DNA from: Rickettsiales bacterium
GTDB lineage: Bacteria > Pseudomonadota > Alphaproteobacteria > Rickettsiales > UBA6187
DNA length: 64,000 nt
Reading direction: 5' to 3'
Assembly (NCBI GenBank): GCA_040507985.1
Contig: JBEVNR010000057.1
Coordinates: forward strand, 14,128-78,127
This document shows, piece after piece, positions 8,492 through 44,400 of this stretch. Below the pieces are notes generated by a model. The model made no database searches and was not told the origin of the DNA. It saw only the letters and a program-made list of their open reading frames with translations. Made by a program: the position numbers and the translations under genes. Each line of letters begins with the position of its first letter. Position 1 is the first letter of the stretch.

Positions 8492-11400
8492 TTACAACCC
8501 GTATTTTCCTCGTAAATACCCCATAATGGCCGCCTCGCTCTGGCCTTTAACGTGATTCTCGAAAATAATTGCTTCCGCGACGTCGTGGCTTGCCGTCGAG
8601 GCGTTGCCGCCGATATGCATGCCGAACGTCGTGTTCAGCGGCGGGAAAGAGGATAATCCCTTTGTCACCGATTGATTGACCGTCGACGACGCCGAACGTC
8701 GCACGAGCGTCGTCATGCCCATAAAGCGAGACGACGCGCTCACATAGGCATGGGTGACGACGGGCAACCCGACGGAGTCGGAAAGATTCATCCGTACCGC
8801 CGATTCGCCCGTTATGTCAAGCGACGCGTGGCCGTAACGGTAGCCTACGCCTCCCGGAAGCGAAGGATTGGCGTAGCTTTCGGCGTAATTCTGTTCGTCA
8901 AGATAGAGCGACCAATAGCTTCCGCCGTAAGGAAGCGACAGGCCGATATTGCGCGCCGGGTCGCCGAAGGCGATCAGGTTGTTCGGCGCACGCGTATTCT
9001 CCGTCGTCACCACGAACACGCTCAGCTCGCTTGCACTTGCGCCGAAGGGATCGGGAACGTCTAAACTCCGCGCCTTGCCGCTTTCGTAGGCGAAACGCAG
9101 CGCCGGCAACCCGCCGATCCCCGACCCTGCATAGGCGGGCCGCAAGGTCGGATCCGCTTGCGTCGCGTCGTTGCCCTTGCCGGATTTGTCGCGCCATATG
9201 GCGGGGCGAACGGACTGGTCGTAGCGCAGCGAGCCTTGGCAATAGGGATCGGAGGCGTCGAGCCATAATTTTACCTCCGGCAAACCGCTTATGCCGCCGG
9301 GAGACGAGGAGGACAGGCATTCGCTCGTTTCGGGGTTGCGCACGATCGTAATTCCCCATTTCACGCCAAGATAATCCTCCATCGCCGTCATTTGCGCCAG
9401 CGTCACGTTTTGGTCGCCGTAGGCCAATATTTCGCCGACGGCGCCGCTCCAGGTCGCGTACCCTGCAAGCGCTCCGGCGGCGCCCACCGCGTTCGATCCG
9501 TTCGCCTGCCCGCTGCGCGCGGGCGGGGAGTCGGCCATCCGTGTTATGCCGTTGGTGCGTATGCGGCGCATATTCCCGTCGTAATACGCCGAAACGACAA
9601 AGGGTTGGCTCGTCGAAAACCCGAGGGCGCCGGCGGAGTAGGAACCTTTCCAGCTATTTTCGATCAGCGTCGCGCTGCGCATCGCGATGAAATTGCCGGC
9701 CATGTCGACGTCGGTGCGCCCTAAATTGAGCAGCCCCTGCGCCCGCGCCGTCTCCGCCGTCGCCACGGCGAACAAGGCGTAGCGTCCGGCGCCGTTAAAG
9801 GCCGCGACGTTCGGCAATCCCATGTAATCGTTCGCTCCGTCGAACACCATCGCGGACTTGCCGGAGAGATACGACTTGACGTATAGCGGACGGTAATTCG
9901 CCGTCGATTGCACCGCGTCGTTGCCGTTCCGCGACTTATCGCGCCATATGCCGGCCGCTTCGGCGTCGGAATAATTGGCGAGCGTTCCCAAACATAGCGG
10001 GTCGTCTGCGTCCAGCCACACCGCCGGCGTTTGGGTCACGCCCGAAACGGAGGGCGACGCAGCCGACATACATGGCGCCGTCGTCATGTCGTAGGCGGCA
10101 ATCGCGTATTTCGTGCGCAAATAGCTTTCGAGCGACGCAATTTGCGTGCCGGTTAGGCTCGTGCCGGCATAGGCCAGGACTTCGCCGATTTTTCCGTCCC
10201 AATTGGAATATCCGTCCACGCCGCCAACGGAGAAACGTCCGCCCGCCTGGCCGTTGCGCGTTCCGACGCTTTCTTCCGCCAATTTTGCGCCGTTCACCCG
10301 CACCGATCGATTGAATCCGTCATAGGTCGCGCTAATAATAAAGGGAGAGGTGGGCGCAACGCTCACCGGCGCGTTGGTGCCGTCGGACCACCAGCTATTG
10401 CGCCATTCGTAGCCGGACGTTCCGCTCGCCAGCGCCAGCACGTTCGATTTGCCGGATTGCTGCGCGTGGTGGAAGGCGAGCAAGCCTTGCGCCCTCGTCA
10501 CGTCGGCTTGCGCCGCCATGAACACGGCGTACACGTTCGCCCCTTCGAGCGCCGTCATCTCCGGAAGATCGAGCGCGTCGTCCGTGCCGTCGAAATTCAT
10601 CGCGCCCTTACCGTTCGTCCAGCTTGCGACGTAGAGAGGGCGAGGAGAGGCGGAATCCCATTGCGCGGCGTCGTTGCCCTGGCCGGACTTGTCGCGCCAT
10701 ATGGTCACGGCGGCCCCATCGGCGTAGGCGGGAGAGGCCCCGCACAGCGTGTCCGATCCGTCCAGCCATAGTTTAAGCCCGGTCGTCACCCCCGTACCGC
10801 CCGGATTAGAGGAAGACGTGCATGCGCCTTGCGCGGGGGGCACGACGAACGCTCCCCATTTTTGGCCTAAATAATTTTCCACGGACTTAGATTGCGTCGC
10901 GTTCAGCGCCCCTTTATAAAGTAAGACTTCTCCGACGTCGTTTTGCCCCCAGTAATTGTTCCGCACGTGGGAAATATAATACACGTCGGGCGCGATCGTG
11001 GAGTTATTGGCGAACGGATCCTGCGCGATAAGGTTTTTATTGCGATAGACTTGCGCCTTTCCTGCGGCGAGTTGCAGGCGCCACACCGCCATGCCGGCGG
11101 CGAGCGCGCCCGACATGTTCACGTCGCCGTTATCCATGGCGACGGAGAACGTGCCGTCGGTCTGGCCGACAAGGAAGGACAGCCCGGCCGGTTCTTGCGC
11201 GACATAGCTATAGCTCGACGCTTTTTTGTCGAACGCGAATATCGCGTCGCTATCGGAGGCGCTATCGTAATTGCGCGAGGCAAGGAAGATCGTAGCCTCC
11301 CTTCCCGTCAGCGAGAACGCCATGTTGCCGCTCATCGCGTCGTCGACGCCATCGAACCGTATGACGGGCAATCCGTTCTCCATGTTCTTTTTGTAGGTGG

Positions 11401-14400
11401 GAGAACCGTTTTTCAGCGTCGCGTTATAGACGTTGCCGGACTTGTCGCGCCACAGATCGACCGCCGCCCCGTCGGCATATTGCACCGACGCGCCTTGGCA
11501 ATAGGGGTCGTTCGCGTCCAGCCAGACGGTTAGCCCGGCGACGACTCCGGTCGCGCCCGGATCGGCAGTCGACGCGCAGGCGGCGGTTCTATTGTCTTTG
11601 GCGAACCATTTCGCCTGTAAATAGGATTCAAGCACATTCACGTTCGCCGCGCTTAGGGCGCCTTCATATAATAATATTTCGGCAAAATCGTTGCGTCCGA
11701 AATTGGCGCCGCGCACGTGGGATACGTAATATTTATCGGGCGTGACGGTAGATGTGTTCGCGAAATTGTCTTGTCCCGCCAACGCTCCGTTGCGATAAAG
11801 CGACGCCACGCCGGATTTGAGCGCCAGACGCCATACCGCAAGCCCCGTGGGAATGTCGGCCAACGCGTTTATATCGCCTTGGTCCATCAAAAGCTGCGCC
11901 TTGCCGTCCGTGGAGTAAACGGCGAAATTCAGTCCGGCCGGTTGGAGCGCCAGCGTTGCCGTCGAAGGCGCGGAACGGTCGGTGGCGAATATGCCGTCCC
12001 AGTCGGTGACGGAGTCTTTATTGTCCGCCGCAATGAATATGGTTGCTTCGCGATTCGTAAACGTTAAGGCGCCGAAGCCGCTCATCGCGTCGTCCACCCC
12101 GTCGAAACGCACGACGGGCAATCCATTTTGCGCGTTCGTGACGTAACTTGGCGTGCCGCCGTCCAATACGGCGTCATATCCCCTACCGGATTTGTCGCGC
12201 CACGTATTGACGGTAGATCCGTTTGCGTATTGGGCGCTTGATCCTTGGCAATACGGATCGTTCGCGTCCAGCCATAATTTCAGGCCGGAGGTGACGCCGC
12301 TTCCGCCCGGCCCGGCATTCGACGCGCAGGCGACATACGCCGCCGTGCCCCATTTATTGCCCAGATATTGTTCGACGGAACGCATTTCGCCGTCGGACAA
12401 GGCGCGATTATAAAGAATAATTTCGCCGAAATCGGCTTTTGCCATCGATCCGTCGCGCTCATAGCCTATGGTGACGACATTCGACGTCACGGCGCTTGCA
12501 TTAACGTAGGCGTCTTCCGCGACTTTCACTCCGCTGCGGAACATTTTCAATGCCCCCGCTTGCGCGCGCATCGACCATACGGAGAAATTGACGTCGGCCG
12601 CCACCAGCCCCACCATATCGTAATTATCGCGTTCGGTGAACAATTGCCCGTCGACGTCGCTGACGCCGAACACAAACGCGTTAGGATCCTGATACACGTT
12701 GCTATAGGCCGAGTTGGTATTGTCTAACGTAAAGAGCGCCCTCCAGTCGCTTTGTAAGTCTTTCGGAGCCATCGCAAAAAACAGCGTCATTTCCCGTTGC
12801 GGCAAACTTATCGGCGCTTGTACGGCCATGGCGGAACCGGCGTCCGCGCCGTTAAAATACATCACGGGCAATCCGTTCTGCGTATTTTTCTTATAGACGG
12901 GAGCGTCGTACGTCGTGACGGCGTCGCGCACGTATCCGGATTTGTCGCGCCATACGCTAACCCTTTCTGCGTCTGCATATTGGTTGGCCGCGCCTTGCGC
13001 TTTAGGATCGTTCGCGTCCAGCCATAATTGCAGCCCGCTCGTCACGCCCAAATTGCCGGGATTGCCTCCCCCTGCCCCGCCGCCGGAGGTAATGCCCCAT
13101 TTCGTCATTAAATAGTTTTCAAGCGCCGTTATTTGCGTATCGTTCGGCACGCTGCCGCCATAGACGAGCAATTCCGCCTCTATGCCGTCCCAATAATTGC
13201 TTCCTGCCGCATTGCCGCCGATACGGTTCGAACCGTTTTGCGTGAAACTTGGCGCGCCGGGAGCGTCCTGGCCTTTAAGCGCGCCGTTTATTTTCAGTTT
13301 ACGCGCGGAACCGTCCCATAAGGCGGACACAAGAAAGAGCTGACCTTGCGTCACGCCCGCCGCCACCGTTTGGTTGCTTGGCGCGCCGCTCCAATCTTGC
13401 TTCCATATATTGCCGGACGTCAATAATTGCGCGTTGTTTTGCATGATGGAAATTAAATGCTGCGAGGCTTTGGAAACATCGTCCGTCGCGGCGACCCCGA
13501 ACACGGCATACGGCGCGTTGCCGACAAGCGAAGAGAAATTTCTCAATATTACATCATCGCTGCTGCCGTCGAAATTCATCCCGGCACGGGCGCCGGGCAA
13601 ATTCGTGACGTCATAGGTCGGCCAGGCGGCGGGATTATCCTGAACGGCGTCGTTGCCGTTGCCGGATTTGTCGCGCCACAAGGCGACCGACGCTCCCGAC
13701 GCATAGCGCGACGCCGCTTTTTGACAATAAGGATCTTCCGCGTCGAGCCATAATTTCAGCCCCGCCGTCGCCCCCGCGCCTCCCGGGTCGGACGACGATG
13801 CACACGCCGCACCTTCTTTTGGTATGGTAATTTTCCATTTGTTCATTAAATATTTTTCGAGGGCGATGCGCTCGGCGTGCGTCTGCGTTGTGCCCACATA
13901 GGCTAACGCTTCGGCGATCGCGCCTTTCCACGGGTAGAGTATCGCGCTTGCGTTGCCCGGATCAGGCATCGCGCCGATCATGTTTCTTGTGCCCGGCGAG
14001 AAATTCGGAGCGGAAGGAGAAAGCCATTTCTTCGTTTCGCCATTCTTTTTCACCAGCAATTCGCTGCCGTTCCATACGGAGGAAACCAAAAACAATTGAT
14101 TTACGGAAGGGGTTACCCTAGTTAATTGCTGGCCTCCTCCCCATGATTGATTCCATGAATTGATTGGAGTAAGGCTTTGCGACATGTATTGCGCCGACGT
14201 CGTATCGCTTAAAGAAACGACCGTTCCGCTCGCCGCTCCAAGCGAAGACGCGCTCATTACCATAAAAGCGGCGTACGGGGCGTTACCCGTCATACTCGGC
14301 ATAGACGGCACGCTTAAATAATCGTCCGTACCGTCGAATTTTATCAATGCGGGCAGGGAGGCGTCCGACGTATCGTAAGTCGGTTTGTTCGCCGCCGTGT

Positions 14401-17400
14401 TTTGCGTCGCGTTACTCGCGTTGCCGGACTTGTCGCGCCAAAGATTGACCGCTCCGGCGTTCGCATAGGGGGTATATCCGCCTTGGCAATACACGTCGGC
14501 GGCGTCGTACCATAACTTTAATCCCGTGGTCACGCCCGTGGCGCCCGGATTGGGGGACGACGTGCACGGATAGGCGGAGGCGTCTATCGATATGCCCCAT
14601 TTATTGGCAAGGTAGGCGGTCACGGCGTTTATGTTCGCCTCCGTCAGCGTCGTGCCGCCATAGACCATAATTTCTCCGATATGGCCAATCCAGCTTTGGT
14701 CGGCGCCCGCCCGCTGGCCAATATAGCCAAATCCGTCGAAATATTGGTTTCTGGCGCCCGGCGTGTCTTGATTTCTTACTACCCCGTTAAATCGCGTGTC
14801 ACGCGTCGTGCCGTTCCAGGTGGCAAGATAAATAAAAGGCTGGTTTGCCGCAATCGACGCAGTGGAGGTGTTTTGCGTCGTTCCGAACCAATCGTGCGCC
14901 CATTGGTTAGAAGAATTTAAAAAATGGGAATTAGAAGAACGATTCGTCCATTTGCCAAAATCCAACAGCTTTTGCTGATAACCTGCTATGGCATTAACCT
15001 CCGTTAGCGCGAAAACATAGTAATTCGCGTTACCGCCTAAGGATTTGACGGCAGGAACGTTCATACGGTTGGCGTTTGTGGTGAAATACACGGAGGAAAG
15101 TCCATTGCGCCAGCCGGAGACATTCGTGGGTTTATAGCTTGCCGTGCTCTGCCTTGCGTCGCGCCCGTTGCCGGATTTGTCACGCCAAAGGGAAATGGCG
15201 GCGCCGTTCGCATATTGGCTTGCGGAGCCTCGGCACAAAGGATCGGAGGCGTCCAGCCATAACGATAAAAGGTTCGTTGCTCCGGTGATTTTGGGATCCG
15301 CCGATGAGGTGCATACCGCAGGAAAAGCCGATATCGCCCATTTATCCGCCAAGTACCTTCCGATTTTCACCACGTCGGGATCGCTCAGCACGACGTTGCC
15401 GTAAACAATGGCTTCGGATATTTTTCCGTCCCATTTTTCCCCCGACGTTTGCAGCGCGCGCCCGATGGAGTTAATGCCGCTTTGTTGGCCCGCATGGGCG
15501 GAAAAAGAGGCTTCCGCCCGCGTCACGCCGTCAAAACGCAAGACGCGAAGCGCATTCACGTTATCCCACAGCGCCCCGTAAATAAACGCCTTGTTCGCGG
15601 CAAGGGCGCTATCGGCTTGCGATACGTCGAGATCCCCCCCCCACCAGGAATTGCGCCAATCACCGGAGGCGCTGCTAATGGTGTTTTCGATATAGGCGTT
15701 GGTGATATTCGGCGTTCCTATCGAAATGATGGACTGCCTCCGCAACGCGTCCGTTTGCGCGACCATAAAAATCGCGTAGGAATTGTTTCCGAGCAGCTCC
15801 GGCAGATTGGGAAAACCGATATAATCGTCCGTGCCGTCAAAATCCATCGTCGGCAAGCCGTTGAGTCCGGTTTGTATATATTTAGGTTTATAGGCGTCGA
15901 CAAACTGCACGCCGTTTGATTCTTTTCCCGATTTATCCCGCCATAGGCCGACGGAGGCGTTGTTCGCGTATTGCGTCCCGCTTCCCATACAATAGGAATC
16001 GGCGGCGTCCAGCCACAGCGCCAAGCCGGCCGTCACGCCCGTATTGCCTGGATTGCTTCCCGAGGTGCAGGCAAGCGGCACGGATATGCCCCATTTTGCC
16101 GCAAGATAGCGTTCTACCTTAATGACGTCGGCGTCGCCAAGCGTCGCGTTGCCGTAACCTATGGCCTCAGCAATTTTGCCATCCCATCCACCATAATTTG
16201 ACCGTACCTTCCCGAATCCGTTCGCTTCTCCGTATTGAAGCGCGTGCGTCCCGGAATTCGTTTCCATCGCCAGCATTCCGTTAAAGCGAAATTTCCGCAC
16301 CGACGTCAAAGGGTTCCATACCGCCGAATATATAAACGGAGCGTTAGCGGCTATTTTGGATACCGACTGCGTAACGGATCTATCGTTGCTTCCCCACCAC
16401 GCATCTATCCATGTACCGCTTGAATCAACCATCGCGGTTCCTTCATAGGCATCGTTCGTGCCGCTTTTACCTATAACAAACAACATTTGTTGCTTTAATA
16501 CATCCGGCTGCGCGACAAAGAAAAGCGCATAGGCGTTGTTGCCGGAAAATTCCGACATATCCGCCATCGCGAGCACGTCGTCCGTACCGTCAAAATCTAT
16601 GGCCGACAGAGAGTTGACTGCTGTTTTACGGTACGCCGGCTTATAGGCCGCCGTCGTTTGCGTCGCGTTATTGGCCTTGCCGGACTTATCTTTCCATAGC
16701 GCTACCGCCGCGCCGTCGGCATAGGGCTGCCCCGTTCCGGTGCATAACGGATCGGCGGCGTCCAGCCAGAACGTCAATCCGCTCGTGACGTTCGTGCCGC
16801 CCGGATTGCCGGCGCCGGAGCAGGCCCCGTACGCGCCCAGTCCCCATTTCGCGGCGAGATAATTTTCTACGCTCGTCATGTTGGCGTCGCTGAGCGTCGC
16901 ATTGCCGTAGGCGATGATTTCCGCGATTTTTCCGTTCCAGTATGATCCGGGGGACGGGGTAAAGTGACCGATCTGGTTGCCCCCGTTTTGCTCGCCGGCA
17001 AAGGCGGGAGCGGTCGCCTCATATTCCGTCGCGCCGTTTAAGCGAAGCGTTTGCAGCGTGCGCGCGGCGTCCCACCGTGCGGCATATATAAACGGCGTCG
17101 AAACGCTAAATTTGGAGATATCGATCGTTGCCCCGCCCGCGCCCCAATTATATTTCCATGCGTTGTTCGCGGGAGACATCTCATGCGACGTAAAGGAGTT
17201 GACGCCAACGGCGGACTTGCCGACGCCTAACAGCGTTTGCTGCGCGATAACCTCCGGTTGCGCTACGACAAAAAAGGCGTAGGAACTATTCCCCGTAAAC
17301 GCCGCCATGTCCGGAAGCGTCAAATAATCGTCCGTTCCGTCAAAACGCATCGCGGGCTTTCCGGTCGCCAATCCCTGTCCGGCATAGACCGGTTTTTTCG

Positions 17401-20400
17401 ACGCCTGCGACTGCGCGGCGTCGTTGGCTTTGCCGGATTTATCGCGCCATAATCCGACGGCGGCGCTTTCGCTATATTGCGCGGCAACGCCGGAACATAG
17501 CGGATCGGACGCGTCCAGCCAAAACGTCGGCACGCTTGCCACGCCGGCCGGCGCCACGTACGGGGCACACGCGCCAAGAGAGGACGACGTTCCCCATTTG
17601 GTCGCCAAATAGGTTTCCAGCGTTTGGGCGTCGGAGGACGTGATCGCGCCGTCATAGACGATAAGCTCGCCAATATCCTGATCGCTTGATCCATACCCGA
17701 CATAAGCGCCGCCTTTCGTCGACAGATTGCCGGAGGTTTTCGTCGTTTCCGCCGCTTTCGTGCCGTTCACCACGATTTTGGCTTTTAAGTTAGAGCTTGA
17801 ATAATAGGCGCGCACAATGGAGATGCCGCCGACGGACGTCGTGCCGGCAGGCATGGAAAGCGTCGGCGCACCCGAAGTGACCCATTTCCACATCGGATTC
17901 GTCGAGCCGGCCGCCTGTAAGTACAACCCTGCCTCCGCAGCGCTCGGCGCGCCGTCGAAGCTAATGAATTTATTGTCGGCGGCAACGTTCTCGCGCAACG
18001 CGGCAAATATGTACATGTCGGCAAGTCCGCCGCCGAACGTGTCGGCGCGCTTCATGGCGTCGCTCGTGAAGCGTATCGCCGGCAGCGCGTTCATATAATT
18101 CGTGCGGTATTCCGGCATAACGGCGACGTCGGTTTGCGACAGCGCGGCGTTATGGCCGGACTTGTCGCGCCACAGGAAGATTTTTTCGCCGTCCGTATAT
18201 TTCGTTCCCGTTCCCTGACATAGCGGATCTTCCGCGTCGTACCATAGCGCAGGCGCGCGGGAAAGCGTCGCGCCGCCCGGCAAGGTGGAGGACGAGCACG
18301 CGGCGTTGATCGGCGAGGCCACGCCCCATTTTTGCGCCAGATATTTTTCCGCCGCCCACGCCTGCGTCGGGCTTAGCGCGCTATCGTAGAGCAATATTTC
18401 CCCGACGTCGGCGCGTCCGAAATTTTGGCCTCCGCGCACGTGGCCCACATAATACGCGTTCGGCGAAATAAGGTCGGCAAGATACGACGCGTCGCGCGAC
18501 GTCACCACCCCGTTTTTTGCGACGAACGCTTGCGCGCCGTCGATTTCCGCCCGCCATACGCCAAAGGAGACGTCGGCGGCGGAAGAAACGTTAATGTCTT
18601 GATTGTTGCTCAGCAATCCTACATTTTGATCGGAGGTCCCTCCTCTTCCGAAATAGATTAACGACGGATCGGAAAACGGCGATGCGGTAGACGCGCGGTC
18701 GTCCAGCGTAAAGACGGCGTCGCTATGGCCGGCGGCGTCTCCGGCGGCAAGCGCGACGACAATCGTCATTTTTTTGTCGGGGAAACGCCAGGACGCATAG
18801 CCCGTGAGGCCGTCGTCCACACCGTCGAACCGCATGACGGGCAGCGCGTTTTGGATGTTTTTCTTAAATATCGGCGCGCCGTAGACGATATCAGCATGGT
18901 AGTTGTTTTTTGATTTGTCCGCCCAGCGATAGGGAACGGCGCCGTCTTCGTAAAGGGCGTTGTTTTGGCATAGCGGATCGGCGGCGTCGAGCCACAATGC
19001 CGGCGTGGCGTCTACCCCGACGATCATGGGGTTGGAAGACGAGGCGCACGTCCGCGCCGGACCGGGAATATCGTATTTATCGCGCAGATAGGTGACGACC
19101 GTCGCTTCTTCCTCCGCCGTCGTCGCGGCGTTATAGGCGACGAACTCTTTTACGTTCCACGTGCCGCCGCCATAACCGAGCATCACGTTCGATAAATTGC
19201 TTACGCCGGCGCCGGCGCCCGTCCATTTCATGCGCCCTCCCCTATCGCCGCCGGCTTTAATGGCCCCTTCTTGGTAGGAAGCGAAGCCCATTTCGTGTTT
19301 GGAAGAAGAGATATAACCGCCATAGACGCCAAGCGCGCCGAGCGTCTCCAGCGCCGCGCTCGACTGCAACGACGTATCGCCGGTATGGGCGAGCGTCCAC
19401 GCCCCGGCGTTGGCCGTTTTCGCCGTTAACGAGAAAATCGACGCGTTGTCGGCGCTAAGGAAGGTCGCGAAGCCTTTTTTCTCGGCGGCGACGGCGCCGT
19501 CGTAGGCTATTGGAGCGATCGCCATATAAAACGACAACTCGCCGCCTGCGCCGAACGCGCCGCCGTGATGCCATAGGGCGGCCTGCTCGAACGTCGCCCC
19601 CGGTTCCACATTCGAGACGTAGGGAATCTTATTGCTTGAAAAAACGTTATTTTTAATGCTTCCGGGCTGCGGATAAACGTCGTATCCTTTTCCGGATTTA
19701 TCGCGCCATATTAAAAACGGATTAATAATTGTGCCGGCGCCGCCTCCGGGCAGAGCAAACTTATCTCCCGTGCAATAGACGTCTTTGCCGTCCAACCACA
19801 ACGCCATGTCGGCGGCGCGCGATTCCATTCCCGGAATGGAATCCGGCACGCAATCCGCCAATATTTTTATAGCCTCGACAATATTCCATTTTTTGGCGAG
19901 CGCAAGATTCAGCGCCCGCGCGTCGGCGTCGTTATACGCGCGGTTATAGGCAATAACCTCATGAACGGCGCCCCTCCAATATACGCCTCCGGCGCTACCC
20001 AGCATAAACGCGTCGCTTGCACTTGACGCCCTGCTTTGCGCCGGCGCGTCCGCCGCGCGCCATAACCCGTTTTTATAGATTTTTCTCGTCGTTCCGTCCC
20101 ATGACGCTTCATATAAGAACGTTTCTTGTTGCAGCGCCATGGGAAAGGCGTGGACCATAAAGGTTTGTTGCGGAACTAAAAGATCGTTGCCTTTCCAGCT
20201 ATTTGCCCAATTATGCGTTGCGCCGTCAAATAGGTGCGCGTTCGCGTGATTGTTCGTTGAGGAATCCGGTAAGGCCAGCATCCCGCGCGCGGCGCTCACA
20301 TCGTCTAAACGTGCGACGGCAAAGATGGAATAAGGCGCGTTGCCAGCAAGTTCCGTGACGGCCGGCACGCTTAAGCGATCGTCCGTGCCGTCGAAAACGA

Positions 20401-32400: not shown

Positions 32401-35400
32401 TCGCAAATAACGTAAAGTCAGCGTCAAGCCCTTTGGGAGCGGTCATGTGACTATGATCGAAATAGAACGCCTCGCGCCCGTTAATACCCGATTTTTTATA
32501 GACGGGGCGAGTATTTTCCGCGACGGCGCCCATATGGCGGGCGGCGCCGGACTTATCGTACCAGAACCATGTTTTTTCATTGTCGGCATATTTCTTCGTC
32601 GCGCCTTTACATTGCGGATCGGCGGCGTCGAGCCATAGTTGCAATCCGCTCATGCCCGTGATTCCGCCGGGATTGGAATCGGAGGTGCAAGCGCCGAAAT
32701 CGGGAGCGTCAACGTTCCATTTTTTCGCCAGATAGGATTCGACCGCGTTGCGTTTATCGTTCGCCAGCGCGCTGTCATAGGCCACGATTTCCCCGATATG
32801 GCCCTGATATGACGCGTTGGCGGTACGAACGGAGCCTATGCTCATGCCGTCAGCGGCATTGAGCGCGCCGGAGGCGGCGTTGCCTACCCATTGTTTTTGC
32901 AACCCTTCGGCAAATAACTGCAAAATGGCGCCTTGCCGCCGTAAGGTCGCCATGCGCGTCGTCTCCACGCCGAAAACGGAGGATATAAACACGTCGTTCA
33001 CGCCAAAATAAAGCTTTTGTCCGCCGTACGACACGTTGAACCGTAAGCCGCTTGCGGCGTCCGCGCTTAGCAATCCCCCGTTCTGGTTGGGATAGACGCC
33101 GGAAGCGCTCGCCGCTAGGGGTTTGAAGGCGATAAAGGCGGTAAAGTCGTTTCTGAGAATGTTCGCCGTTTGCAGCGCGCTATTGTTCGCCGCGTCGAAA
33201 TACATCATCGAACGTCCGTTATAGCCGGCGTTCCAGGCGAGCGTCGGCTTACCCTTGCCGAATTGCGGCGCGGCGTCGTGCGCTTGGCCCGACTTGTCTT
33301 TCCATAACGGAACGGACGCGTTGTTCGGATAGGCTTTCGCGTTGCCGGAGCACAGCGGGTCGTTCGCGTCCAGCCACAACACAAGGCCGGCAGGCGCCAG
33401 CGAGGAATCGCTCGCGCAGGCGCCGCCCGTAAACCATTTGCCGGAAAGATACGTCTGCACCGTCGCCGCGTCGACGTCCGCGAGCGGAGCGCCGTAGGAG
33501 AGAATTTCGGCGATCGCGGCGTCGGCGTAATACGCGTCTTTTTGCGCGCCGATGCGCCACAGATTGCCCGATTGGGCGTTGAATCCCGCCCCCGTTTGGG
33601 CTTGTTGGGCACCGTCGACGAAAATTTTCGACGGCGTTCCCGTTTTCAGGCGATAGACGTGATAGTCGACGTCGGACGGCGGCGCGACGTAAGCGGTCGA
33701 TCCGTTCGCCTTGCCGTAGAGGCGGGCGTCGCTTTGCTTATAGAAGAAATACTCGTCGCCGGTCGACAGCAGCGTTCCCGACTCTCCGCTATTGGCGAAC
33801 GAGGCGACGACGAACATGTCCCCCCCCGTGACCGGCAGGGACGGCGCGGCGAAATGGCTGCCGCTTGCGCTAAATACGAACGCGCCCTTGCCGTTTCGGG
33901 CGTCCGCCTTATAGGCCGGGCGACGATACTGCACCGCAAAGGATTTGGCGGCGCTTTTATCGCGCCATATCCACGATTTCACCGACGACGCGCTCGACAG
34001 GCCGGCCGTGCCGTCGCAGTCCGGATCGGCGCCGTCCAGCCACAGATTTAATCCCGTTTGGTAGGCAAGCGCGGCGTCCGGCTTGCATGTCGGCGCGGGT
34101 TGATAGCTCGCGCCCCATTTTTTAGATAAATACGCGCCCACGTTGGCCGCGTCGGCGTCGACGGCAGGGGCGGCGTAGGCGATGATTTCCGCAATATATC
34201 CGTCCAGATAGGCGTCGGCGCCCGCTCCCTTGCGTTGGCCGATATAGAAACTGTCGTTCAGCAAGGCTTGCGACGGGGTTTGCACGCCGAAGCTTTCGCC
34301 GTCGGCATAGGCGCTTAACGCTCCTCCCGCCGCCTGCGACACTCTATATATATGCATGCCGTCGGCGGGGGCGGCGACGCTTGCGGTCGCGAGCAGTTGC
34401 AGCCGCTCGGTTTTCGTGCGTTCCCACAAGCGGAAATTTGCGTCGGTGCGTCCGCCCATAAAGGCGCCGGCCGAGTCGCGCGCATTTTGCGATCCGACGA
34501 GGAAAATATCGCGCGGCGCAAAGGCGGTCGCAATTTCGAGCGATTGCAGCGACGCGGAAGAAAACGTCACCGCCGGCATGTTGTTCGCGACGCCGGTCGC
34601 GTATTTCGGCGCCGTCACGGCGTAGGCGTGACGGTTGTTGCCGGATTTATCCATCCACGCCGGCACGACGTCGCCGTTTTTATAGCGCGTGGCGCCGTCG
34701 CATAAAGGATCGGCCGCGTCAAGCCAGAGGCTTATGCCGTTTTTATAGGTTAACGTTTGATCGGATACGCAACTGAGCGCGACTTTCCATTTCAGGCTAA
34801 GATACGTCTCCGCCGCGCCGCGTTCGGTGGAATCTAGCGCGTGGTCGTAGATAAGCATTTCGCCGAGAGCGGCGTTTAAGTAATAGGGGCCGGGGTCGTA
34901 CCCTATCCCGAAACGTTCGACGCGCAGCGGCCCGGCAAGGGCGCCGGAGGCGTGCGCCCCGCCGTTACGATAAACGGACACGGCGCGATCGGCGGTGACG
35001 GTGACGGCGTACACGCCGAAAAATCCCATGTCGGCGGCGGGTGCGGCAATGTCTAACGTGGTATCGCTTCCCCCGGCGGCGGTGAATAAAAACAGCGAGG
35101 CGGGAGCGCCGGGAAGCAATATCGTTTCGTTGCCGCTAGACGCCGACGAACGCCGCGCGAACAACCCTTGCTTATTGCCGCCGACGGTGAATTTCGCCGC
35201 CATCAGCAAGGTTTTGTCGGTGAGGTCGTACAGATCGGTAAATTCAAGAAAATCGTCCGTACCGTCGAGCGTCACCAGTTTTTTATTGTTTTGCGTGACG
35301 GTGGAGCTAAGCGTCGGGCGCGCGCCGTCTCCGTTCACGGCGCCCGGCGTATGGCCGGACTTGTCGCGCCACATGTTTTTCGCGCTGCCGATATTCGCCC

Positions 35401-38400
35401 CGCCGGAGAGAGCGCCGCCTTGGCAATCGACGTCGCTTGCGTCTAACCACAAGGCCAGCCCGTTTTGCGGCGCGCTCGCGTCGCTGCGGCACGCGCCGTA
35501 AGTCGGCAAGTTCCATTTCGCCGTTTCATAGGCGGTGAGGGCAGCGATCTCCGCGTCGGAAAGCGCGACGTCGTAGGCGATAATTTCCTGCACGTCGCCC
35601 GCGAAATAGCGGCTTGCCGCGCCGCCGGAGGAGGACGGGCCGCCGATGGCCACCGGTCCCGCCGTCGCGCCCGGCGCGGCGGCTTCCGCAATTTCCGCGA
35701 GCGTCAGCTTGGGCAAGGTTATGCCGTCCTGCATCATCTGCGTTCCGCCGACATGGACGGATTGCGTCACGCCGAAATTAATGCGCGCGACGACGAACGC
35801 CCCCTCCCCTTTGCTTGCGGGAAGCGGGAAGTAATCTTCCTTTCCTCCGCTTGCGGTCGGGCTAAGCAGGTAGCCCGAGCCGCCCGAAGCGCCAAGCCCC
35901 CATACTTGCCCCGCGCCTTCGTAGCCGAACGCGAAGGCGAGCCGGTCGTTGCTCGCGCTTTGCCGCGCCGCCGAGGGCGCCAGCGCCACGGCCAGCGTGA
36001 CGCCGCCGCTCGCGCTCGTGAGGTAATTCGCCCCCAGCGTCAACCGGTCGTCCGTTCCGTCAAATTTCACGGAAGGAAGCGCGTTTAGCCCTTTGGGATT
36101 ATAGACGGGCATAGACGCGGTCGCGAGCGCCGAGGCAGTGAATGCGCTCGCCGATTTGTCGCGCCACACATAGCCGGCCATACCGACGGGATGCGATTCG
36201 GTCCAGCCGGCGCCGCTGCATGCGGGGTCTTTCGCGTCGAGCCATAATTTTACCGAGGCGGGTCGTACCGTTAACGAGACGTCGGCCACGCACGCAACGG
36301 GAACGTTCCATTTTTCCCCCGCGCTCGCCCATACCGAGCGCAATTCCGTGGGCGTCAATACGCGGTTATACGCCATAATTTCGCCGACGGCGCCGTTGTA
36401 ATAATTGGCGTTATGTTGTCCCGCGCCGATAAGCGCGTCGTCGGAGGGCGATTGAACGGACGTCTCGCTGCCCGTCACCGTCGCGCCCGCCTTGCCGTTG
36501 ACGTAAAATATCGCTTGCCGCGTCGCTCCGTCAAAGGTCGTCGTCAGGATAGACGGCGTTTGCAACCCGACGTCTTGCGTGTCGCAATGGCGGGTGAAGG
36601 CGGGAGTTCCCGCGCCGTCATTCACCAGCAGCCATTGCCGGTTATTCGTCGCGGAGGCTCCGGCACAGGTGGCGGAGTTCGATTCCGTATGCCATCTAAA
36701 GCCGTTATCCCCCCCTCCGACGATCGAGCCGCTATTGTCGCGGCTAATCACCGCCATGAGGGTAAAGGCGTTCGATATGCCTAGGCCAGAACGTTTTATG
36801 CGCAGATAATTGTTGTTAAATCCTATGGCGGAGCCGTTTCCGAGCGTCGTCGCGGTTTTTTTATAGGTCGGACGCTGCGACGCAACGACTTGATAGGCGA
36901 CGTTGCCCGATCCGGATTTGTCGCGCCACACGCGCAAGCCCGATCCGTCCGTGGGCGCCGTTTTGCCGTCGTCGCAATGTGCGTCTTTCGCGTCGAGCCA
37001 AAGTTTCAGACCGCTCGCGACGCTCGCCGCTTTATTGGTACAGGCGGATTGAAGCGTCGTTTTCCATTTTTTCGCCAGATACGTTTCCATGCTTTTTTTC
37101 GCGCTATCGGCAAGCGCGGTTTCGTAGACGAGAATCTCCGCGACGTCCGAACGTGTCGGAAGCGATCCGTCGTTCGCCGCGCCGATATTGGCTATGCCCG
37201 TTCCCATGGCGCCGGCAGCGGTGAGCGTGGATATGTCGAGCGCGTCTCCCCTAAAAGACGGCAATCCGTCCAGCCCGTCGGTGCGCGGCGTCGTCACCCA
37301 AAACGCGCCGCGATTGTCGGCGTAGACGGCGGCGGTTCCGTCACCTCCCCTTCCCCACAAGGCATTGGCGGCGCCGGCGCGGAAATCGAGTAATACCGAC
37401 GTCGCCCCGGGCGCCGTGTTATGCACGATGAAGGCGGTGCGAACGTTGACGGCGCTCCGTGTGGTCATGCGGTCGTCGACGCCGTCGAATTTCAGCAGCC
37501 CGACGCCGGCGACATAACTAAAGACGGGCGCGGCGGCATCAGTGGCGGAGGCGTGGTTTTTATTGCCCGACTTGTCGCGCCATATGCCGATTTTGTCGTT
37601 GTTCGCTATCGTGATTTTGCCGGTGCAGGACGGATCGGCGGCGTCGAGCCACAAGGCGAGTCCGGCGGAAGGCGCGGCGCTATCGTCGGCGCACCCGACG
37701 AACACGCCCCATTTATCGGCGAGATACGTTTCGACGGCGCGTCGCGCCGCGTCGTCCAGCGCCCGACTATAGACGATCGTTTCGGCCATGTATCCGGCGA
37801 ATCCCTTGGCGAATCCGCCGTTTGACGGGTCGTACCCGATCGCGAGACGTTGCGGTTTGGCGCCGGCGTATTGTTCAGCCGCATTGTCGGAGCGATCCGT
37901 CGCGCCGTCGATATAGATCGCGCGCGCGCTTCCGTTTCTAGTAAATTCCGCGATATGCGCGTCGGGCGTCGCCCTGACTTTGCCGGCGGAGACGAGCGCG
38001 CCGCCGGCCGGCGTCGTTTCGTCGTAAAATAGGGTGAAGTCGGCGTTCATGCCGAATTGGTGGGCGGTTTGTCCGCTATTTTCGGCGTAATGCCCGAATA
38101 ATTGCCCCGTTTGCGCCTTGCTTGCGTCGGGAGCGATCACCGTAAAGATGCTATAGGCCGTCGCGTCGCCGGGAATGACGTTCGACTTGCCGTACAGTCC
38201 GTCCCCTCCGTCGAAATACACCGCCGGCTTGCGGTTGATTTTTGCGGTGACGTATGTCGGGCGGCGGTTGGACGCGCTTTGCGTTAAACGGTTGCGATCG
38301 TCGCTTTTGTCGCGCCATTCGTAGGCTCCGACGCCCGTTTCCGATTGCGAGGGCCAGCGCGTCGCGCCGTCGCAAGCGGGGTCGAGCGCGTCGAGCCACA

Positions 38401-41400
38401 ATTCTAATTTATCGTGGTTTAGCGTTTTGTCGATCGCGCAGGGGCGATTGAGCGCCGCGCCCCATTTATTCGCCAAATCCATTTCGACGTCGCGCCGTTC
38501 GTTCGCGGCGAAAGCGCGTTTATAGAGACGTATTTCCGCAACGTCGCCCTTAAAATATTGTCCGGCGGTCAGCGCGCCGGAGAGCGCGCCCACAGTGAAC
38601 GGACCCGCGCCGGCGGTCGCTCGGGCAGGGGCTTCGCTGATTTTCGCGGCATCAAGCGCGGTCGGCGCGGCTTTGGCCACGATAGGATCGGCGCCGCTCA
38701 CCGACAATTTTTGCGAATCGCCGAACGTCACCGCATACGACAACACGGCGAAGGCGTTTTGCTCCAAGCCAAGCTCGCTTGCGGTCTGGCCGCTTCCGCT
38801 CGCCTCGACCGCATAAAAGCGCAATGAGGACGGCGCGAAGTCCAGTCCCCATCCCCCCGAATATCTGGCGCCGAAATCGAGCGCCGGCTTTTGCGTCGTC
38901 GTCGCGCTTCTGAGGACGACGAACGCCGTCATGCCTCCGTCGCCCGTGTTGATGTACGGGTAATATTTCCCGAGCGTCAAGCAATCGTTGGAACCGTCGA
39001 ACCGCACGACCGCCTTTCCGCCGGCGGCGCCATAGATATAGCTTGGAGGATCGCACGCCGCGTCGGCGTCGGTCGCCATAAACACGTTGGCCGATTTGTC
39101 GCGCCATAGCGTGATCGCTCCGCCGTTCGCCGGCGTCGTCGCGCCGTCGCAATTGGGGTCGGAGGCGTCGAGCCATAGCGCCATGTCGGTCGGCTTGGCG
39201 GCGCCGTCCTCGACGCAGGCGGAGCGCACGACCAGTTTCCATTTCGTGCTTAAATAGCGTTCGACGGCGGCGACGTCCGTCACCGACAAGGCGCGGTCGT
39301 AAAATAATATCTCGCCAATCATGCCTTTGTAGTTTTTCACCGGCACGCCCGACGACGACGAGGCGCCGATCACCATGTAATCGTCGGTTTTCGCCGCCGG
39401 ATGGTAGGTCGCGCTTGCGCCCTCGACGCCGTTCCAGCTTGCCGTCGCCTTGCTGCCGTCCATGACGAGGCGGAACACCCCGTTCTGGTTGGTTTCGGTC
39501 GCCAGGTTTTTCCCCGTCGCGTTCGCGTCGCCCGCCTGCAAGACAAGATCGCCGCTCGGAGAGAACAGGCCGGATACGCCGTCCGTCGCGCTATCGACGG
39601 CGCCGAACAATCCGTAATGGTTGGCGTAGGTCGCCGGCGTCCGCGCCACCACAAAGGCGGTGAAGGGCGAGCCGGGACGATAGTCGGTCATGATATATTC
39701 GTTGCCGCTAAACGACACGGCCGGCAAAGCGTTCAGCGGCGAAGCGAGCGCGTAAGACGGCGCTCCCGCGTCGTAGGAATAGCCGTTATAGACGGTCGCC
39801 GCGCCGCTTTTGTCGCGCCACAGATAGCCGCCCGTACCGACTTTGGCGCCGTCAGGCCACGCCGTGACGCCGTCGCACGCCGGATCGGCGGCGTCAAGCC
39901 ATAGCGCGAGGCCGGTTTTGTCGACGTTGCCGCTCGCGGCGCATCCGTTGTCTAACGCAATTCCCCATTTGCCCGAAAGCTGGCGTTCGAGCGAGGCGAG
40001 CGAGGCGGAGGAAAGCTCGCGATCATATACCAATAATTCCGCAATCGCACCGGAGAGCGAGGCCGTACCCGCCGGGCTGCGCCCGATAAGCAGGTCGGTC
40101 GCCACGCTCGCCGCCGGCAAGGCAGGTTTGGCAATCGGCGCTTTTTTGCCGACATAGCCGCCGTTCACGCGCATCGTCTGGTAGTTCGAAGCAACGCTGC
40201 GCGAAGCGGAATAGACGGCAAAATTGCCGTAAGAGAATCCCCCTACCTGCGATTGCGCGAGGTCGGCGCCCGCCGTTCCGGCGGTCAAGGGGCTGTGGTG
40301 ATGGAATGACGCGCGGCCGGTTTGGGTGTCGAGCAGCATCCCGATTTTCGTCGGCGCGCTCGCGTCGCGCAGCGAAATCAGGCTGTCGGCGGCGTCGGAG
40401 GCGATTTTGGCGGCCATTACCACGCTATATCCGTCTTTTGCGGCTAGCGCGTTAAAGGCGAGTATTTCGAGCGAATCGTTGCCGTCGAAGGTGACGGCGG
40501 GAGAAATTCCCCCCACGGCGTGCGCGTCGTATTTCGGTTGCGCCGACGCGGTCGCCTGTCCGGCATGGCGCCCGTTGCCGCTGCGGTCGCGCCACGGGCT
40601 AGCGGCGGTGACGGAGGCGCCGTCCGCCATGTATCCGGCCTGTCCGTTGCATCCCGGGTCGCTCGCGTCCAGCCATAAGGCAAGGCCGGAGATGGGAACC
40701 GATCCGTCCGACACGCAGGAATCGTTCGAGACGGCGATACCCCATTTCGTCGCAAGATAAGTGTTAATGGCAGCGGTTTGGGCGGCGTCGGGCGCGACGC
40801 TGAAAATCAGCGTTTCGGCAATGTCGCCGCTAAAGAAATTGGATTTTTGCGCGCTTCCCCCAAGGTAAAACTCGCCGATGGCGCCCATGACGGCGGCGCC
40901 GTCGGTCGCGTTGTCGACGCGAACGCCGTTGCGGTAGATTTTATATCCGGCGTCGTATTTGAGCGACAACAACATCGGCTCGACGGCCATTTCCGCCGCC
41001 CGCCCCGTATAGGCGCTGTGATAACCCGCGCCGGCCGCGTCGGAATACGACGCCACCTCGCGTGACATGCCGGACACCGCGTTGCCCAGCGCCAGCCCCG
41101 AGCCGAGCGCGCCATAATTAGGATCAAGTACTTGCGCCGCTGCCGAGAAAGGCGTAACGGTCGCCGCCGGCGTCATCACCACGAACGCCGCCGCCATCGG
41201 CACGCCGCTTAAATTCGCGCCCGCCAGATATTGTCCCTGACCGGAAAACCGCATCGCCGGTTTGGTATTGACGGCGCTCGCGACGTAGGTCGGCGCGGTT
41301 TCGTCCGTTCCTTTTAGCGTCATGGCATAGCGGCCTTTATTTTTCCACCCTAAGTTAGACGCCAGTTTCGCGCCGTCGTTATAGGCGGTTTTGCCGTCGC

Positions 41401-44400
41401 AGGTGGGATCGGTCGCGTCGAGCCACACGGCGAGATTGTCGGTCGGCACGAGGGGAGAGTTGCTTGCGGTGTAACAGGTGTGGCCGCCGCCCGATCCGTC
41501 GCCGTTTAACGCCACGTTCCACTTGCTCGCCAGCTTGTCTTGAATGCCGTTAATGGAGTTAGCGGATAAAAAGGAATTATAGAGAATGATCTCAAAAATG
41601 TTGCCTTCATATTGCTTGGGACCAATCCCGCCGCCTATCCATAGGGGCACGCTTTGGCGGTCCGGCGCGTCGGCGCCCGTGCTGACGGGTGTGCCTCCGT
41701 CTACGGACAAATAGAGTTTTTTCGCGTCGCCCCCGTCGTAATAGAGCGCGGCGACGTGAACCCGATTGTCGGAGACGGCTTTTTTCACGATTTTATCCGA
41801 TCCGCTAGATTCCTCCGTAAAGCCGGCGAACACCTCCGGTCCGGTTTTGATGGTGAGTCCGATATTGCCGGCCTGATCGGCGAAAATGGGAGCGTTGCCG
41901 GAGATATAGGCGGCGCCGGCGTTGGCCTGTGCTATTTTAAAGACGCTGAGCGCGGTAAACCCGGCCGAGCCGAACAGGTTTTGCGACGTGGCCCCCGCCA
42001 CCGTGTAATAGTCGTTTCCGCCGAAATCCGCGCCGATATGACCATAATATTTCACCATTTTGGCCGCGTGCGCGCTTGTCGTCGTCGCGCTCCGCCCGTT
42101 TGCGCTGCGATCCTTCCAGCACAATACCTTATCGCCTTCCGTCGCCGCCGTCGCGCAGTCGGCGGACGAGGAAAGCGAACCGGATTGGCTCGCGTCGAGC
42201 CACAATTGCAATCCCGCGCACTCGCCGTTCGGGCACGGCTCTTCGTCGAGCGGCGTCACGTCCCACCGCTCGGCGAAATATTGTTGCAGCGTGGTTTGCT
42301 CGTTGATCGTGAGCACCCGGTCGTAGACGGCGACTTCCGCGATATCGCCCGCCCAATAGGGGCTTGCGGGATTGCCTTCGGTAAAACCGCCGAGCGCGAA
42401 GGGTTTCGAGCTGGCGTACGGCGCGCTATTGTCGTCGCCCTCCCCGACCGGCATGCCGTTTAAATAGGTTTCAAAGTCGCCGCTGACGCTGCCGCCGAAC
42501 GACGCCTCAAACACGTACATTTGCCCTGCCTTGACGGCGCCGAACCCTTGAACGTTCCAGTTTTGCGCTCCCCCGCGCGCATAGGCCGCCCCCGGAGTGA
42601 ACGCGGCGCCGAGCGTCGAGTTCCAGCTTAGCTGGATGTTTGAGCCTTTGGAAAGCGGGCCGGCGCAACATAGCGCCGCGTTGGGCGAAGCCGTTCCCGC
42701 CGCCACCACGTAATAATGCCAGTCGTCTTGGTTGGGAACAGTCGCGTTTTGCAATATGTTCGCCGTGCCGTTAAATCGCACCACGGCATTGTTGCCGGCT
42801 TTCGCAACGGAAGGCGAGGCGGCGGCGGAAGGCGACGACAAATGCCGCGCGTTCACGCTTTTATCTTTCCACAGATCCGCCCCCTGCCCCAGCTTCATGC
42901 CGGCGGCGAGCGCGGTTTTTCCGTCTCCGGTAATGTCTTTGGCGTCGTACCACACCACCAACCCGTCGGAGATGCCGGCCGGTCCTTGGTCTTTTTCCAC
43001 CGCGACGGAAATGCCCCAGCGGTTACCCATGTCGGCTTCAATTTTTAAGCGTTCGTCGTCGCTGACGAAACGGTTATACAGCGCGATCTCCCCGATATGG
43101 CCGTTATAGTAATCGCTTTTGAGCGTCGAATTTCCCCACGTGCCCACGTAAATCGGCACGTCTTCGTTGACCGCCACGAGCGACACATTATTCACCGCCT
43201 GCCGCTTGCCGCTTAAAAACACGTGCGGCGCGGTGCCGTTCCACGAGACGGAATAAATAAGCGGTTTGCCGTTCGTGTCGGGGTGCGCGTAATTATTGAC
43301 GGTCGTCGTAAAGCGCAAGCCCAGCGGAGAAGCGGCGTTGGCCGTCGAATCCATAAATAAGCGGAACGGCGCGGCGGTCGCGGCTGCGGCGCGTCCTTTA
43401 GCCAGCAGTGTGCCGTTGCTTCCGGCCGCCGGCTTAGCCACGACGAACACGCTGTAACGTCCGCCCTTGGTGGCTTTCAGGCTAAGCCCGTCTATCGTCG
43501 TCGCGTCGGCGTTAAAGCGAAAATAATCGTGAACGCCGTCGAAATACACGGCCTCCCTGCCGTTGATCGCGCCCGTATCAGCTTCCGGCGCGCCGAACCC
43601 GTAAAGCGGATTACCCTTGTTACTCGCGTCGCGCCAATAGCCGACATTGTCGCCGTCGCCGGCTTCGGTGGTGATATTTTCGTCGGTGAATAACGGTTTA
43701 TATTGCGTGTCCACCGCGTTCGACCAGTTGACGATGCCGTCGGTGACGTCGCCGGGGCCGCGCAATCCCGCGCCTTTGCAAAGCGACGCCAGATCCGTCG
43801 CCGCTTCGCTGTCGGCCTTCGTCCAATTGCCGTCGTCGCAACGCAAATGGATTTTACTTTGCGGGTCGCTGCCCGCATATTGGTAGCCGGTTTTGCATTC
43901 GGCCTTCACCTCATAGGCCACGCCGTCGCCGGCCTCGAACGGGCCGCCATAGATAGTCATGTTCCACGGTTTGTTTTCCAATTCGGCGCGGGAGCAGGTT
44001 TTGCGGACGCACGATCCGTTTTCCGGCCACACCCATTCGCCGTCTTTGCCGCATACCGCCGTGGGCGTCGATCCGGCCGGGGTGAAATGTTTCTCGCAGC
44101 CCGACGCTTCGTGAGACGATCCGTCCGCCTCCGCGTTCGGCCATATGATATGGTTGAGCGTGACGGTTTTGCAGATAGATTTCGAACAGTTTTTCTCGCT
44201 TACCTTCCATACGGGTTTGTCTACGTCGTCGAGCGCGCACACTTCATACATGACGCCGTCTTTCGCGCCCGGGCAATTTTCGGTCACGATGGCGCGCATT
44301 TCGCCTAGCGCGTACTCACCGCACGACACGGGCTTGCAGGTGTCGCGCTTCACCGTCCAATAGGGAGAGACGTTTCCGTTATCGACGCAAAGCAGCGTCG

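Follow-up and report, generated by a model that had tools for sequence, protein, structure and literature searches.

A putative giant modular type IV pilin with 47 LamG/ConA-like modules in a bacterium labelled Rickettsiales

Simple type IV filaments acquire new functions through modular pilins, of which the known examples bear a single additional domain or a small number of them. In Streptococcus sanguinis, PilB consists of a pilin and a vWA module. PilC of the same species combines a pilin module with a ConA-like lectin, binds glycans and has been modelled at the pilus tip (PMC8179133, PMC9934059). A database survey published in 2021 listed more than 1,200 modular pilins and showed PF13385 to be one of the modules most often grafted (PMC8179133, PMC9934059); the most extreme multi-domain pilin that it cited has 860 residues (PMC8179133). 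Giant adhesins are also known outside the pilins. SiiE contains 53 BIg domains, has a mass of 595 kDa and is exported by a type I secretion system (T1SS), and the Mobiluncus mulieris adhesin has 7,651 residues and 51 immunoglobulin-like (Ig-like) domains (PMC5466336, PMC10619420). Giant open reading frames (ORFs) of Omnitrophota, archaeal 'huge proteins' and DPANN LamG proteins carry PF13385 and were proposed to be cell-cell adhesins (PMC10066038, PMC11573180, PMC5498576). Here, we describe a gene encoding a protein of 12,440 residues in a stretch of 64,000 nucleotides from a bacterium labelled Rickettsiales (assembly GCA_040507985.1, contig JBEVNR010000057.1, positions 14,128 to 78,127; referred to below as the window). 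We consider it probable, if short of established, that the product of this gene is a giant modular type IV pilin, which would be exported and anchored at its N-terminus via a type IV filament and would form a multivalent glycan-binding fibre. No description of its family was found in the literature on giant pilins or on pilin-LamG proteins in Rickettsiales.

From its N-terminus, the giant protein consists of a class III signal peptide, a pilin head of about 220 residues, a Cys-rich stalk made of eight repeats, and an array of 47 LamG/ConA-like modules. The corresponding features, all on the minus strand, have the following window coordinates.

8492..45814, minus strand: complete giant ORF, 12,440 residues, 1,307 kDa, pI 5.1 (ORF list and translation)
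45800..45814, minus strand: class III (prepilin-type) leader MRRTG (sequence MRRTG/FSLIEM; TIGR02532; stand-alone homologues)
45140..45799, minus strand: type IV pilin module, mature residues about 6-225 (alignment, AlphaFold2, Foldseek, matches of the profile in the PDB)
43775..45103, minus strand: stalk of eight four-Cys repeats of about 45-75 residues each, residues 238-680 (Cys map, repeat alignment)
8495..43759, minus strand: 47 contiguous LamG/ConA-like modules of 217-289 residues each, residues 686-12440 (local hidden Markov model, alignment, Pfam PF13385, AlphaFold2, Foldseek, matches of the profile in the PDB)
25265..29761, minus strand: modules 20-25, an internal block containing members of the two less-diverged subfamilies (clustering at 35% identity or more)
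9302..17557, minus strand: modules 36-46, a C-terminal block of the most similar modules, with identities of up to 54% between adjacent modules (identity matrix, clustering)

The gene is intact and native. An ORF scan of the window revealed a single frame of about 37 kb, free of stop codons and without interruption, extending from the ATG at 45814 to the stop codon at 8492-8494. The same 12,440-residue product was called in an independent Logan assembly of run SRR28982155. The GC content of the gene (59.6%) and of its third codon positions (GC3, 71%) matched those of the neighbouring housekeeping genes. Scanning of positions 45815-46060 did not reveal any minus-strand sigma-70-like promoter upstream of the gene, no Shine-Dalgarno sequence was recognisable before the start codon, and a terminator scan did not find any terminator downstream. 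The translated product contains 132 Cys residues, which the Cys map showed to be arranged in regular pairs, a pattern that supports export to an oxidising compartment.

The N-terminus of the protein, MRRTG/FSLIE (MAAVLGAVAALSVMVAGG), displays a short basic leader ending with Gly, a Phe at position +1, a Glu at position +5, and a hydrophobic tract of about 23 residues. Cleavage by a prepilin peptidase is predicted to occur after Gly5, leaving Phe as residue +1. A six-frame scan showed that a prepilin motif of this type is unique in the window. The module that follows the leader contains a hydrophobic alpha-1N segment (FSLIEMAAVLGAVAALSVMVAGG), an alpha-1 helix (residues 8-58), a four-stranded sheet, and a C-terminal Cys200-Cys216 pair. 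The head was aligned with 55 stand-alone small homologues. Glu+5 (E10), C200, and C216 were invariant in the 56 sequences, and conservation of the Glu and of the Cys pair across the family therefore argues for selection for pilin function. A C-terminal disulfide-bonded region (D-region) is typical of many diderm pilins, and Cys200 and Cys216 are a candidate pair for a disulfide of this kind. Six homologues were scanned with the prepilin models; four stand-alone ones reached the cut-off of TIGR02532, and three of these also reached that of PF07963.

The AlphaFold2 model of residues 1-235 was obtained with high confidence (pLDDT of 91.7 and pTM of 0.85) and consists of a 51-residue alpha-1 helix, spanning residues 8-58, and of a four-stranded sheet (strands 134-139, 151-156, 189-193, and 216-221), an arrangement resembling a 'lollipop'. 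The top Foldseek matches of this model were the type IVb pilin of enterotoxigenic Escherichia coli (9iuf_A, E-value of 1.6e-4, probability of 1.0) and PilA1 of Clostridioides difficile. All 22 matches of the head profile in the PDB were type IV pilins or pseudopilins of type II secretion systems, including PilE, geopilin, PilA, MshA, PpdD, GspG, TcpA, and the CFA/III pilin. By both alignment and modelling, residues 1-225 thus qualify as a type IV pilin module.

The stalk repeats follow the pattern C..G.TR...CP.G..G...E.C....G.W.....C, and their Cys columns were kept in 83 homologues. Comparison with Pfam provided a score of 19.9 bits for Sushi (PF00084), for a cut-off of 20.7 bits (E-value of 1e-3), together with weak, sub-threshold matches to HRM and Ephrin_CRD. 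The stalks of the homologues showed weak matches to HRM, Sushi, and Ephrin_CRD alone, and the stalk-repeat profile had no significant sequence match in the PDB (best E-value of 0.023). The pattern of Cys, Gly, and Trp in the eight repeats recalls Sushi/CCP or HRM domains. At the other end of the protein, the C-terminus directly follows the last module (…YLRGKYGL*). Pfam analysis of residues 1-5000 and of all 47 modules did not detect any C-terminal sorting signal, whether RTX, sortase, or other, and returned Laminin_G_3 plus one marginal match to DUF4933. Since the protein lacks such a signal and ends at its last module, anchoring must be N-terminal.

The array accounts for 94% of the protein. 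A preliminary description of the window, based on the nucleotide sequence, had reported about 47 tandem modules with a period of about 750 nucleotides between positions 8495 and 43790. A hidden Markov model (HMM) built from 13 modules of the giant's own translation recovered exactly 47 back-to-back modules, with domain E-values of 1e-13 to 1e-98, and placed the array at 8495-43759. Chance is excluded as an explanation because these 47 in-register profile matches occur in a stop-free frame of 37 kb. The distance between the first Trp residues of successive modules was 217-286 residues, or 651-858 nucleotides (mean of 749.2), in full agreement with the reported periodicity. In the alignment of the 47 modules, the module-initial Trp (LW.DA) was present in 46 modules and replaced by Arg in the remaining one, and the second Trp (W.DKS) was present in all of them. 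The consensus motifs LWLDA.DP.C.G, WRDKSG, FDG, and G.I.E...Y...L....E.YL..KWG were recovered. The two recurrent DNA strings that had been pointed out in the array, GTCCAGCCA[TC]A and CCGGA[TC]TTGTCGCGCCA, were indeed found in 14 and 10 copies, respectively, all inside the array and none elsewhere in the window; both are reverse complements of codons for W-L-D and W-R-D-K-S-G.

Pairwise identity between modules was 25% on average and 54% at most, indicating from sequence divergence that the modules are old. Clustering at 35% identity or more identified two subfamilies, A (M21, 22, 23, 25, 36-41, 45, and 46; 12 modules) and B (M20, 34, 42, 43, and 44; 5 modules), and 30 singletons. Judged by these identities, the block of modules 36-46 marks the most recent duplications. 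Conservation was concentrated in the N-terminal strand and its motifs (LWLDA.DP.C, WRDKSG, and FDG), which include the conserved acidic residues D15, D18, and D39, and, at the C-terminus, in the strand and helix that contain G.I.E…YL..KWG, whereas about 100 residues in the middle of the module vary strongly. Pairs of Cys residues 22-28 positions apart straddle nearly every module junction, one located just before the boundary and the other in the DP.C motif. This arrangement suggests that disulfides form at the junctions and, hence, that the array is located in an oxidising extracytoplasmic compartment.

The modules had been proposed to be LamG/ConA-like, and both profile and fold comparisons led to the same assignment (PF13385, clan CL0004). 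The Laminin_G_3 model PF13385 matched the first 4,000 residues of the protein in 8 stretches with a score of 218.2 bits (cut-off of 27.6 bits, E-value of 7e-65) and the next 1,000 residues with 45.4 bits. When modules were analysed in isolation, 24 of the 47 were matched at E-values of 1e-3 or lower (best value of 7.7e-12). Some single modules scored under the gathering threshold, such as M38 (24.7 bits), and all 47 matched the intra-protein HMM; the modules left unmatched by PF13385 have diverged beyond the reach of this model. The AlphaFold2 model of module 38, for which the other 46 modules served as the alignment, was a beta-sandwich of 12 strands with a C-terminal helix (pLDDT of 95.1 and pTM of 0.92). 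Foldseek provided 365 PDB matches at E-values of 1e-3 or lower for this model, the top-ranked ones being ConA-like lectin or carbohydrate-binding module (CBM) domains (TMq of 0.55-0.65). The structural neighbours included the lectin domain of trans-sialidase, the Hc-N domain of tetanus and botulinum toxins, NTNH, domain 4 of the GH43 enzyme AbnA, CBM40, and PilC of S. sanguinis. Comparison of the module profile with PDB sequences retrieved 4qvs, annotated as an 'S-layer domain-containing protein' (best match, E-value of 1.8e-11), neurexin LamG, domain 4 of AbnA, CBM40 sialidases, and PilC. The lectin module of PilC (7oa7) was therefore matched both by fold (E-value of 1.7e-6) and by profile (E-value of 1.5e-3). 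From their fold class, the modules may bind carbohydrates or calcium, and the fold neighbours together with the PilC precedent point to glycans. Divergence of the central region is compatible with many specificities and also with simple drift.

Residues 1-686 were used in an exhaustive HMMER scan, which returned 7,079 proteins, including 72 at E-values of 1e-30 or lower; the N-terminal region therefore has no fewer than 72 close relatives in metagenomes. A word-index search with the N-terminal 686 residues returned nothing, which reflects the limited sensitivity of that method in view of the HMMER result. The matches fell into two groups, proteins of about 340-3,900 residues aligned over most of residues 3-610, and many stand-alone proteins of about 220 residues aligned over residues 3-220. 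In a set of 83 proteins homologous to the N-terminal region, the head and stalk were followed by 13, 11, 10, 8, 7, 6, 5, and down to 1 or 0 LamG modules of the same subtype, and the proteins typically ended with …KWG[IL] directly after the last module. With 47 modules, the giant contains 3.6 times as many as the next largest homologue and is by far the largest modular pilin found in this analysis. Representative homologues are P0045 (3,863 residues, GCA_964352935.1), P0012 (1,875 residues), and P0011 (1,405 residues). As in the giant, a pilin head, a four-Cys stalk, and LWLD…WRDKS…YL..KWG modules are present and the genes are embedded among housekeeping genes; these homologues differ from the giant by the number of LamG modules (0-13 versus 47), and identity in the N-terminal region does not exceed about 40%. 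On the basis of these comparisons, proteins combining this head and stalk with a variable number of LamG modules form a previously undescribed family, and the head itself is assigned to a family of pilins of about 220 residues, distinct from that of PilC, which occurs in alphaproteobacterial contexts in the loci examined.

The stand-alone pilins of about 220 residues that we inspected (L024, 10001-11397; L022, 10001-10669) were located amid housekeeping genes in alphaproteobacterial contexts. Their neighbours included PAS_5, Alph_Pro_TM, and gene transfer agent-like portal and protease genes, and one of the small pilins was directly followed by a second N_methyl gene. Beyond the generic N-terminal motif, this pilin family apparently has no curated model. 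P0011, P0045, and P0012 each adjoin a Dioxygenase_C gene, and two of the three also adjoin a DJ-1/PfpI gene. The P0012 locus additionally holds an ABC-F ATPase of 611 residues resembling the one encoded about 6 kb from the giant gene (window 51817-53652). These shared neighbours suggest conserved chromosomal neighbourhoods in a related lineage.

The distribution of the modules was investigated separately. Since the 47-module alignment was too diverged to be used as a seed, the locus search was seeded with a 12-module subset and identified relatives displaying 25-31% identity over the full module; a single-module search returned 10 weak matches. In an index of 5.8 billion proteins, GTDB species genomes, and JGI metagenomes, the best full-module matches did not exceed about 31% identity, and no orthologue of the giant was found in the GTDB species genomes or the JGI metagenomes. 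Outside pilins, the LWLD…WRDKSG subtype was detected in proteins of about 500 residues with a Sec signal in Pseudomonas (L013 and L016), in RTX-repeat giant ORFs of more than 5,000 residues in Pelomonas and Roseateles (L002 and L003), in ORFs of more than 4,000 residues running off contigs in metagenome-assembled genomes (MAGs) of Opitutales (L011, L012, and L018), and in two adjacent proteins of five and four modules in a freshwater metagenome (L029). This LamG subtype thus seems to be a widely reused building block of surface proteins.

The following mechanism, whose steps follow established pilin biology (summarised in PMC9934059), would account for this architecture. The hydrophobic alpha-1N helix would insert the nascent protein co-translationally into the inner membrane, and prepilin peptidase would cut off the MRRTG leader after Gly5. 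The pilin head would then become part of a pilus or pseudopilus, the most likely position being the tip of this type IV filament or its vicinity, where the giant subunit is expected because of its bulk; bulky modular pilins are generally expected at this position (PMC8179133), as modelled for PilC (PMC9934059). The tail of about 12,200 residues would be threaded out of the cell as a chain of beads acting as a multivalent, multi-specificity, glycan-binding adhesin towards the surface of a host, a prey, or a particle. A LamG-type sandwich spans about 4 nm and a small disulfide repeat about 3-4 nm. With these values, the length of the chain would be in the range of 0.2-0.25 µm. The preliminary description had proposed a surface fibre built from a single polypeptide. 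This proposal is reasonable and is strengthened by the Cys pairs at module junctions and by the export signal, but it overlooked the N-terminal 685 residues, i.e. the pilin head and the stalk, which set the export and anchoring of the fibre and are, in the whole protein, the most unusual region. As a more tentative possibility, which we regard as doubtful, the giant could be the tip subunit or functional body of a new type of type IV filament, a 'fishing line' of about 0.2 µm bearing 47 lectin domains of differing specificity that is extended and reeled in by the pilus motor and enables a deep-branching, Rickettsiales-like bacterium to capture and dock onto eukaryotic host or prey surfaces, the head representing an uncharacterised pilin family repeatedly fused to LamG arrays.

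Several observations weigh against assembly of the giant into a filament. Its own N-terminus scored just below the curated cut-offs of the prepilin models (14.9 versus 16.3 bits for TIGR02532 and 12 versus 21.2 bits for PF07963), and the fold matches of the head were modest, with TM-scores of 0.37-0.60. No gene for a prepilin peptidase, an assembly ATPase, a platform protein, or a secretin was detected among the larger flanking ORFs of the 64-kb window, and no pilus or secretion machinery was detected beside five homologue loci. To our knowledge, no pilin approaching the size of the giant has been shown to assemble, and passage of a tail of 1.3 MDa through a secretin is a conjecture. Ligand binding, for its part, is deduced from the fold class, and this LamG subtype is not restricted to pilins. 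The sub-threshold motif, the lack of filament machinery in the window and beside the homologue loci, and the physical difficulty of moving 47 folded domains through a secretin would all be accounted for if the protein were a membrane-tethered fibre that does not polymerise. The pilin-like N-terminus would in that case be a signal-anchor, or a degenerate or exapted pilin domain, holding the protein in the inner membrane and never entering a type IV filament, and the fibre would fill or span the periplasm or reach the surface by another route. We consider this explanation unlikely since G-1, F+1, and E+5 are kept, with E+5 and the head Cys pair invariant across the family, since the head retains a complete and confidently modelled pilin fold, and since a rod of about 0.2 µm is too long for the periplasm unless folded back on itself.

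The modular-pilin reading also has to be compared with explanations that assign another role or origin to the array. The LamG modules might be inert spacers or self-associating units of a structural scaffold, such as a sheath, an S-layer-like coat, or a biofilm matrix, module divergence then resulting from drift and avoidance of recombination rather than from ligand diversification. The best PDB match of the module profile, an S-layer domain-containing protein, is consistent with such a role, as are the restriction of conservation to core and junction residues, with a central 100-residue region that is simply variable, and the fact that ligand-binding residues were not identified in the modules. 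However, most structural neighbours bind carbohydrates (CBM40, the trans-sialidase lectin domain, domain 4 of AbnA, toxin Hc-N, and the PilC lectin), and a coat would be poorly built from one copy per filament tip, making a scaffold function quite improbable. In size and tandem-domain layout, the protein is similar to type I-secreted RTX/BIg giant adhesins, such as SiiE, LapA, and MpIBP, and a related LamG module is located inside an RTX-repeat giant ORF of Pelomonas (L002). If the giant belonged to this class, its hydrophobic N-terminus would be incidental. However, the Pfam scans did not detect any RTX/HemolysinCabind repeat, C-terminal secretion signal, or BIg domain, the protein stops at its last LamG module, its N-terminus has a pilin fold, and the flanking genes (pyrH, frr, dnaA, ABC-F, plsX, and fabH) do not include T1SS ABC, MFP, or TolC components. 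The domain scans effectively refute this explanation, to which we attach almost no credence. Finally, giant repetitive genes are often mis-assembled and the source is a metagenome assembly, raising the possibility of a repeat-induced chimera or of a pseudogene. Mis-assembly is unlikely because identity between modules is low (about 25% at the protein level), which means that long stretches of repeated DNA, prone to collapse or expansion, are absent, and because two assemblies are concordant on the 12,440-residue product. In addition, 37 kb without a stop codon, 47 modules in register, preserved core residues, and native codon composition are not expected for a pseudogene. Both forms of artefact, which we judge very improbable, were rejected based on low repeat identity, concordant assemblies, and the preserved frame.

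The window neighbours of the giant gene are an acyltransferase gene, pyrH, frr, an inositol monophosphatase-family gene, an aminotransferase gene, and an NDP-sugar transferase gene; further genes encode PCMT, MscS, and an esterase, or correspond to dnaA, an ABC-F gene, plsX, fabH, a miaB-like gene, and murB. Neither tRNA genes nor Rfam families were detected in the window. The DnaA protein encoded in the window is 100% identical to an NCBI protein annotated 'MAG: … [Rickettsiales bacterium]'; the next best match displayed 53% identity, followed by MAGs of Rickettsiales, Rickettsiaceae, and Alphaproteobacteria at 41-47%. The host thus appears to be a deep-branching alphaproteobacterium labelled Rickettsiales, of uncertain placement. 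Its GC content of 56-60% is unusual for Rickettsiales, so this placement needs re-testing. Type IV pilus genes have been reported in basal Rickettsiales lineages (PMC9352585, PMC10847448). The cumulative GC skew reached its minimum, with a change of sign, at about 50-52 kb, next to dnaA, and the replication origin is probably located there.

49735-53652: dnaA (minus strand), intergenic region 51184-51816, and ABC-F gene (plus strand) (GC skew minimum)

The start of the giant gene is located about 6 kb from dnaA and the putative origin, and the gene is oriented in the direction of the leftward replication fork. It is flanked by two hydrophobic ORFs with the appearance of multi-transmembrane proteins (7424-8317, plus strand, 289-297 residues; 46533-47147, plus strand, 204 residues). 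Neither belongs to a Pfam or NCBIfam family, and the former was also called on the Logan contig. Four other ORFs of 179-398 residues have no Pfam family (56338-57534, plus; 57712-58785, minus; 61388-61960, minus; 62126-62665, plus). A Sel1-repeat protein is encoded at 62370-63704; Sel1 repeats are common in host-associated bacteria.

The origin of host association in Rickettsiales is actively debated, and, in an uncultured lineage bearing this label, the giant is a candidate for an organelle of attachment to the host. Its structure raises the questions of whether type IV machinery and a secretin can handle a subunit of 1.3 MDa, whether a pilus motor could pull a lectin chain of 0.2 µm, and whether 47 diverged modules amount to 47 specificities. 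Among described proteins, the giants of Omnitrophota and archaea are similar in that they, too, are predicted surface proteins of very large size and come from uncultured microbes that probably live in association with a host. They differ in being mostly unannotated, with few LamG domains and many transmembrane helices, whereas the giant described here has a single, N-terminal, pilin-type anchor. SiiE and the M. mulieris adhesin share with it the presence, in one polypeptide, of about 50 tandem beta-sandwich domains forming a long adhesive fibre, which is a prediction in the present case. Their domains are Ig-like, their export relies on a T1SS or on Sec and sortase, and their signals or anchors are C-terminal; in contrast, the giant combines LamG/ConA-like domains with an N-terminal pilin anchor and has no C-terminal signal. 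PilC and PilB are built as the giant is, with an N-terminal class III signal peptide and pilin module to which a functional module is grafted C-terminally. PilC contains one lectin module in a few hundred residues (373 in the PDB chain), versus 47 modules in 12,440 residues, and lacks the eight-repeat Cys-rich stalk, its pilin head belonging to a different family. Since the host of the giant is a diderm, passage through a secretin would be needed, unlike in the PilC system of S. sanguinis. Set beside these proteins, the giant is the modular-pilin principle at more than ten times the size of the 860-residue case.

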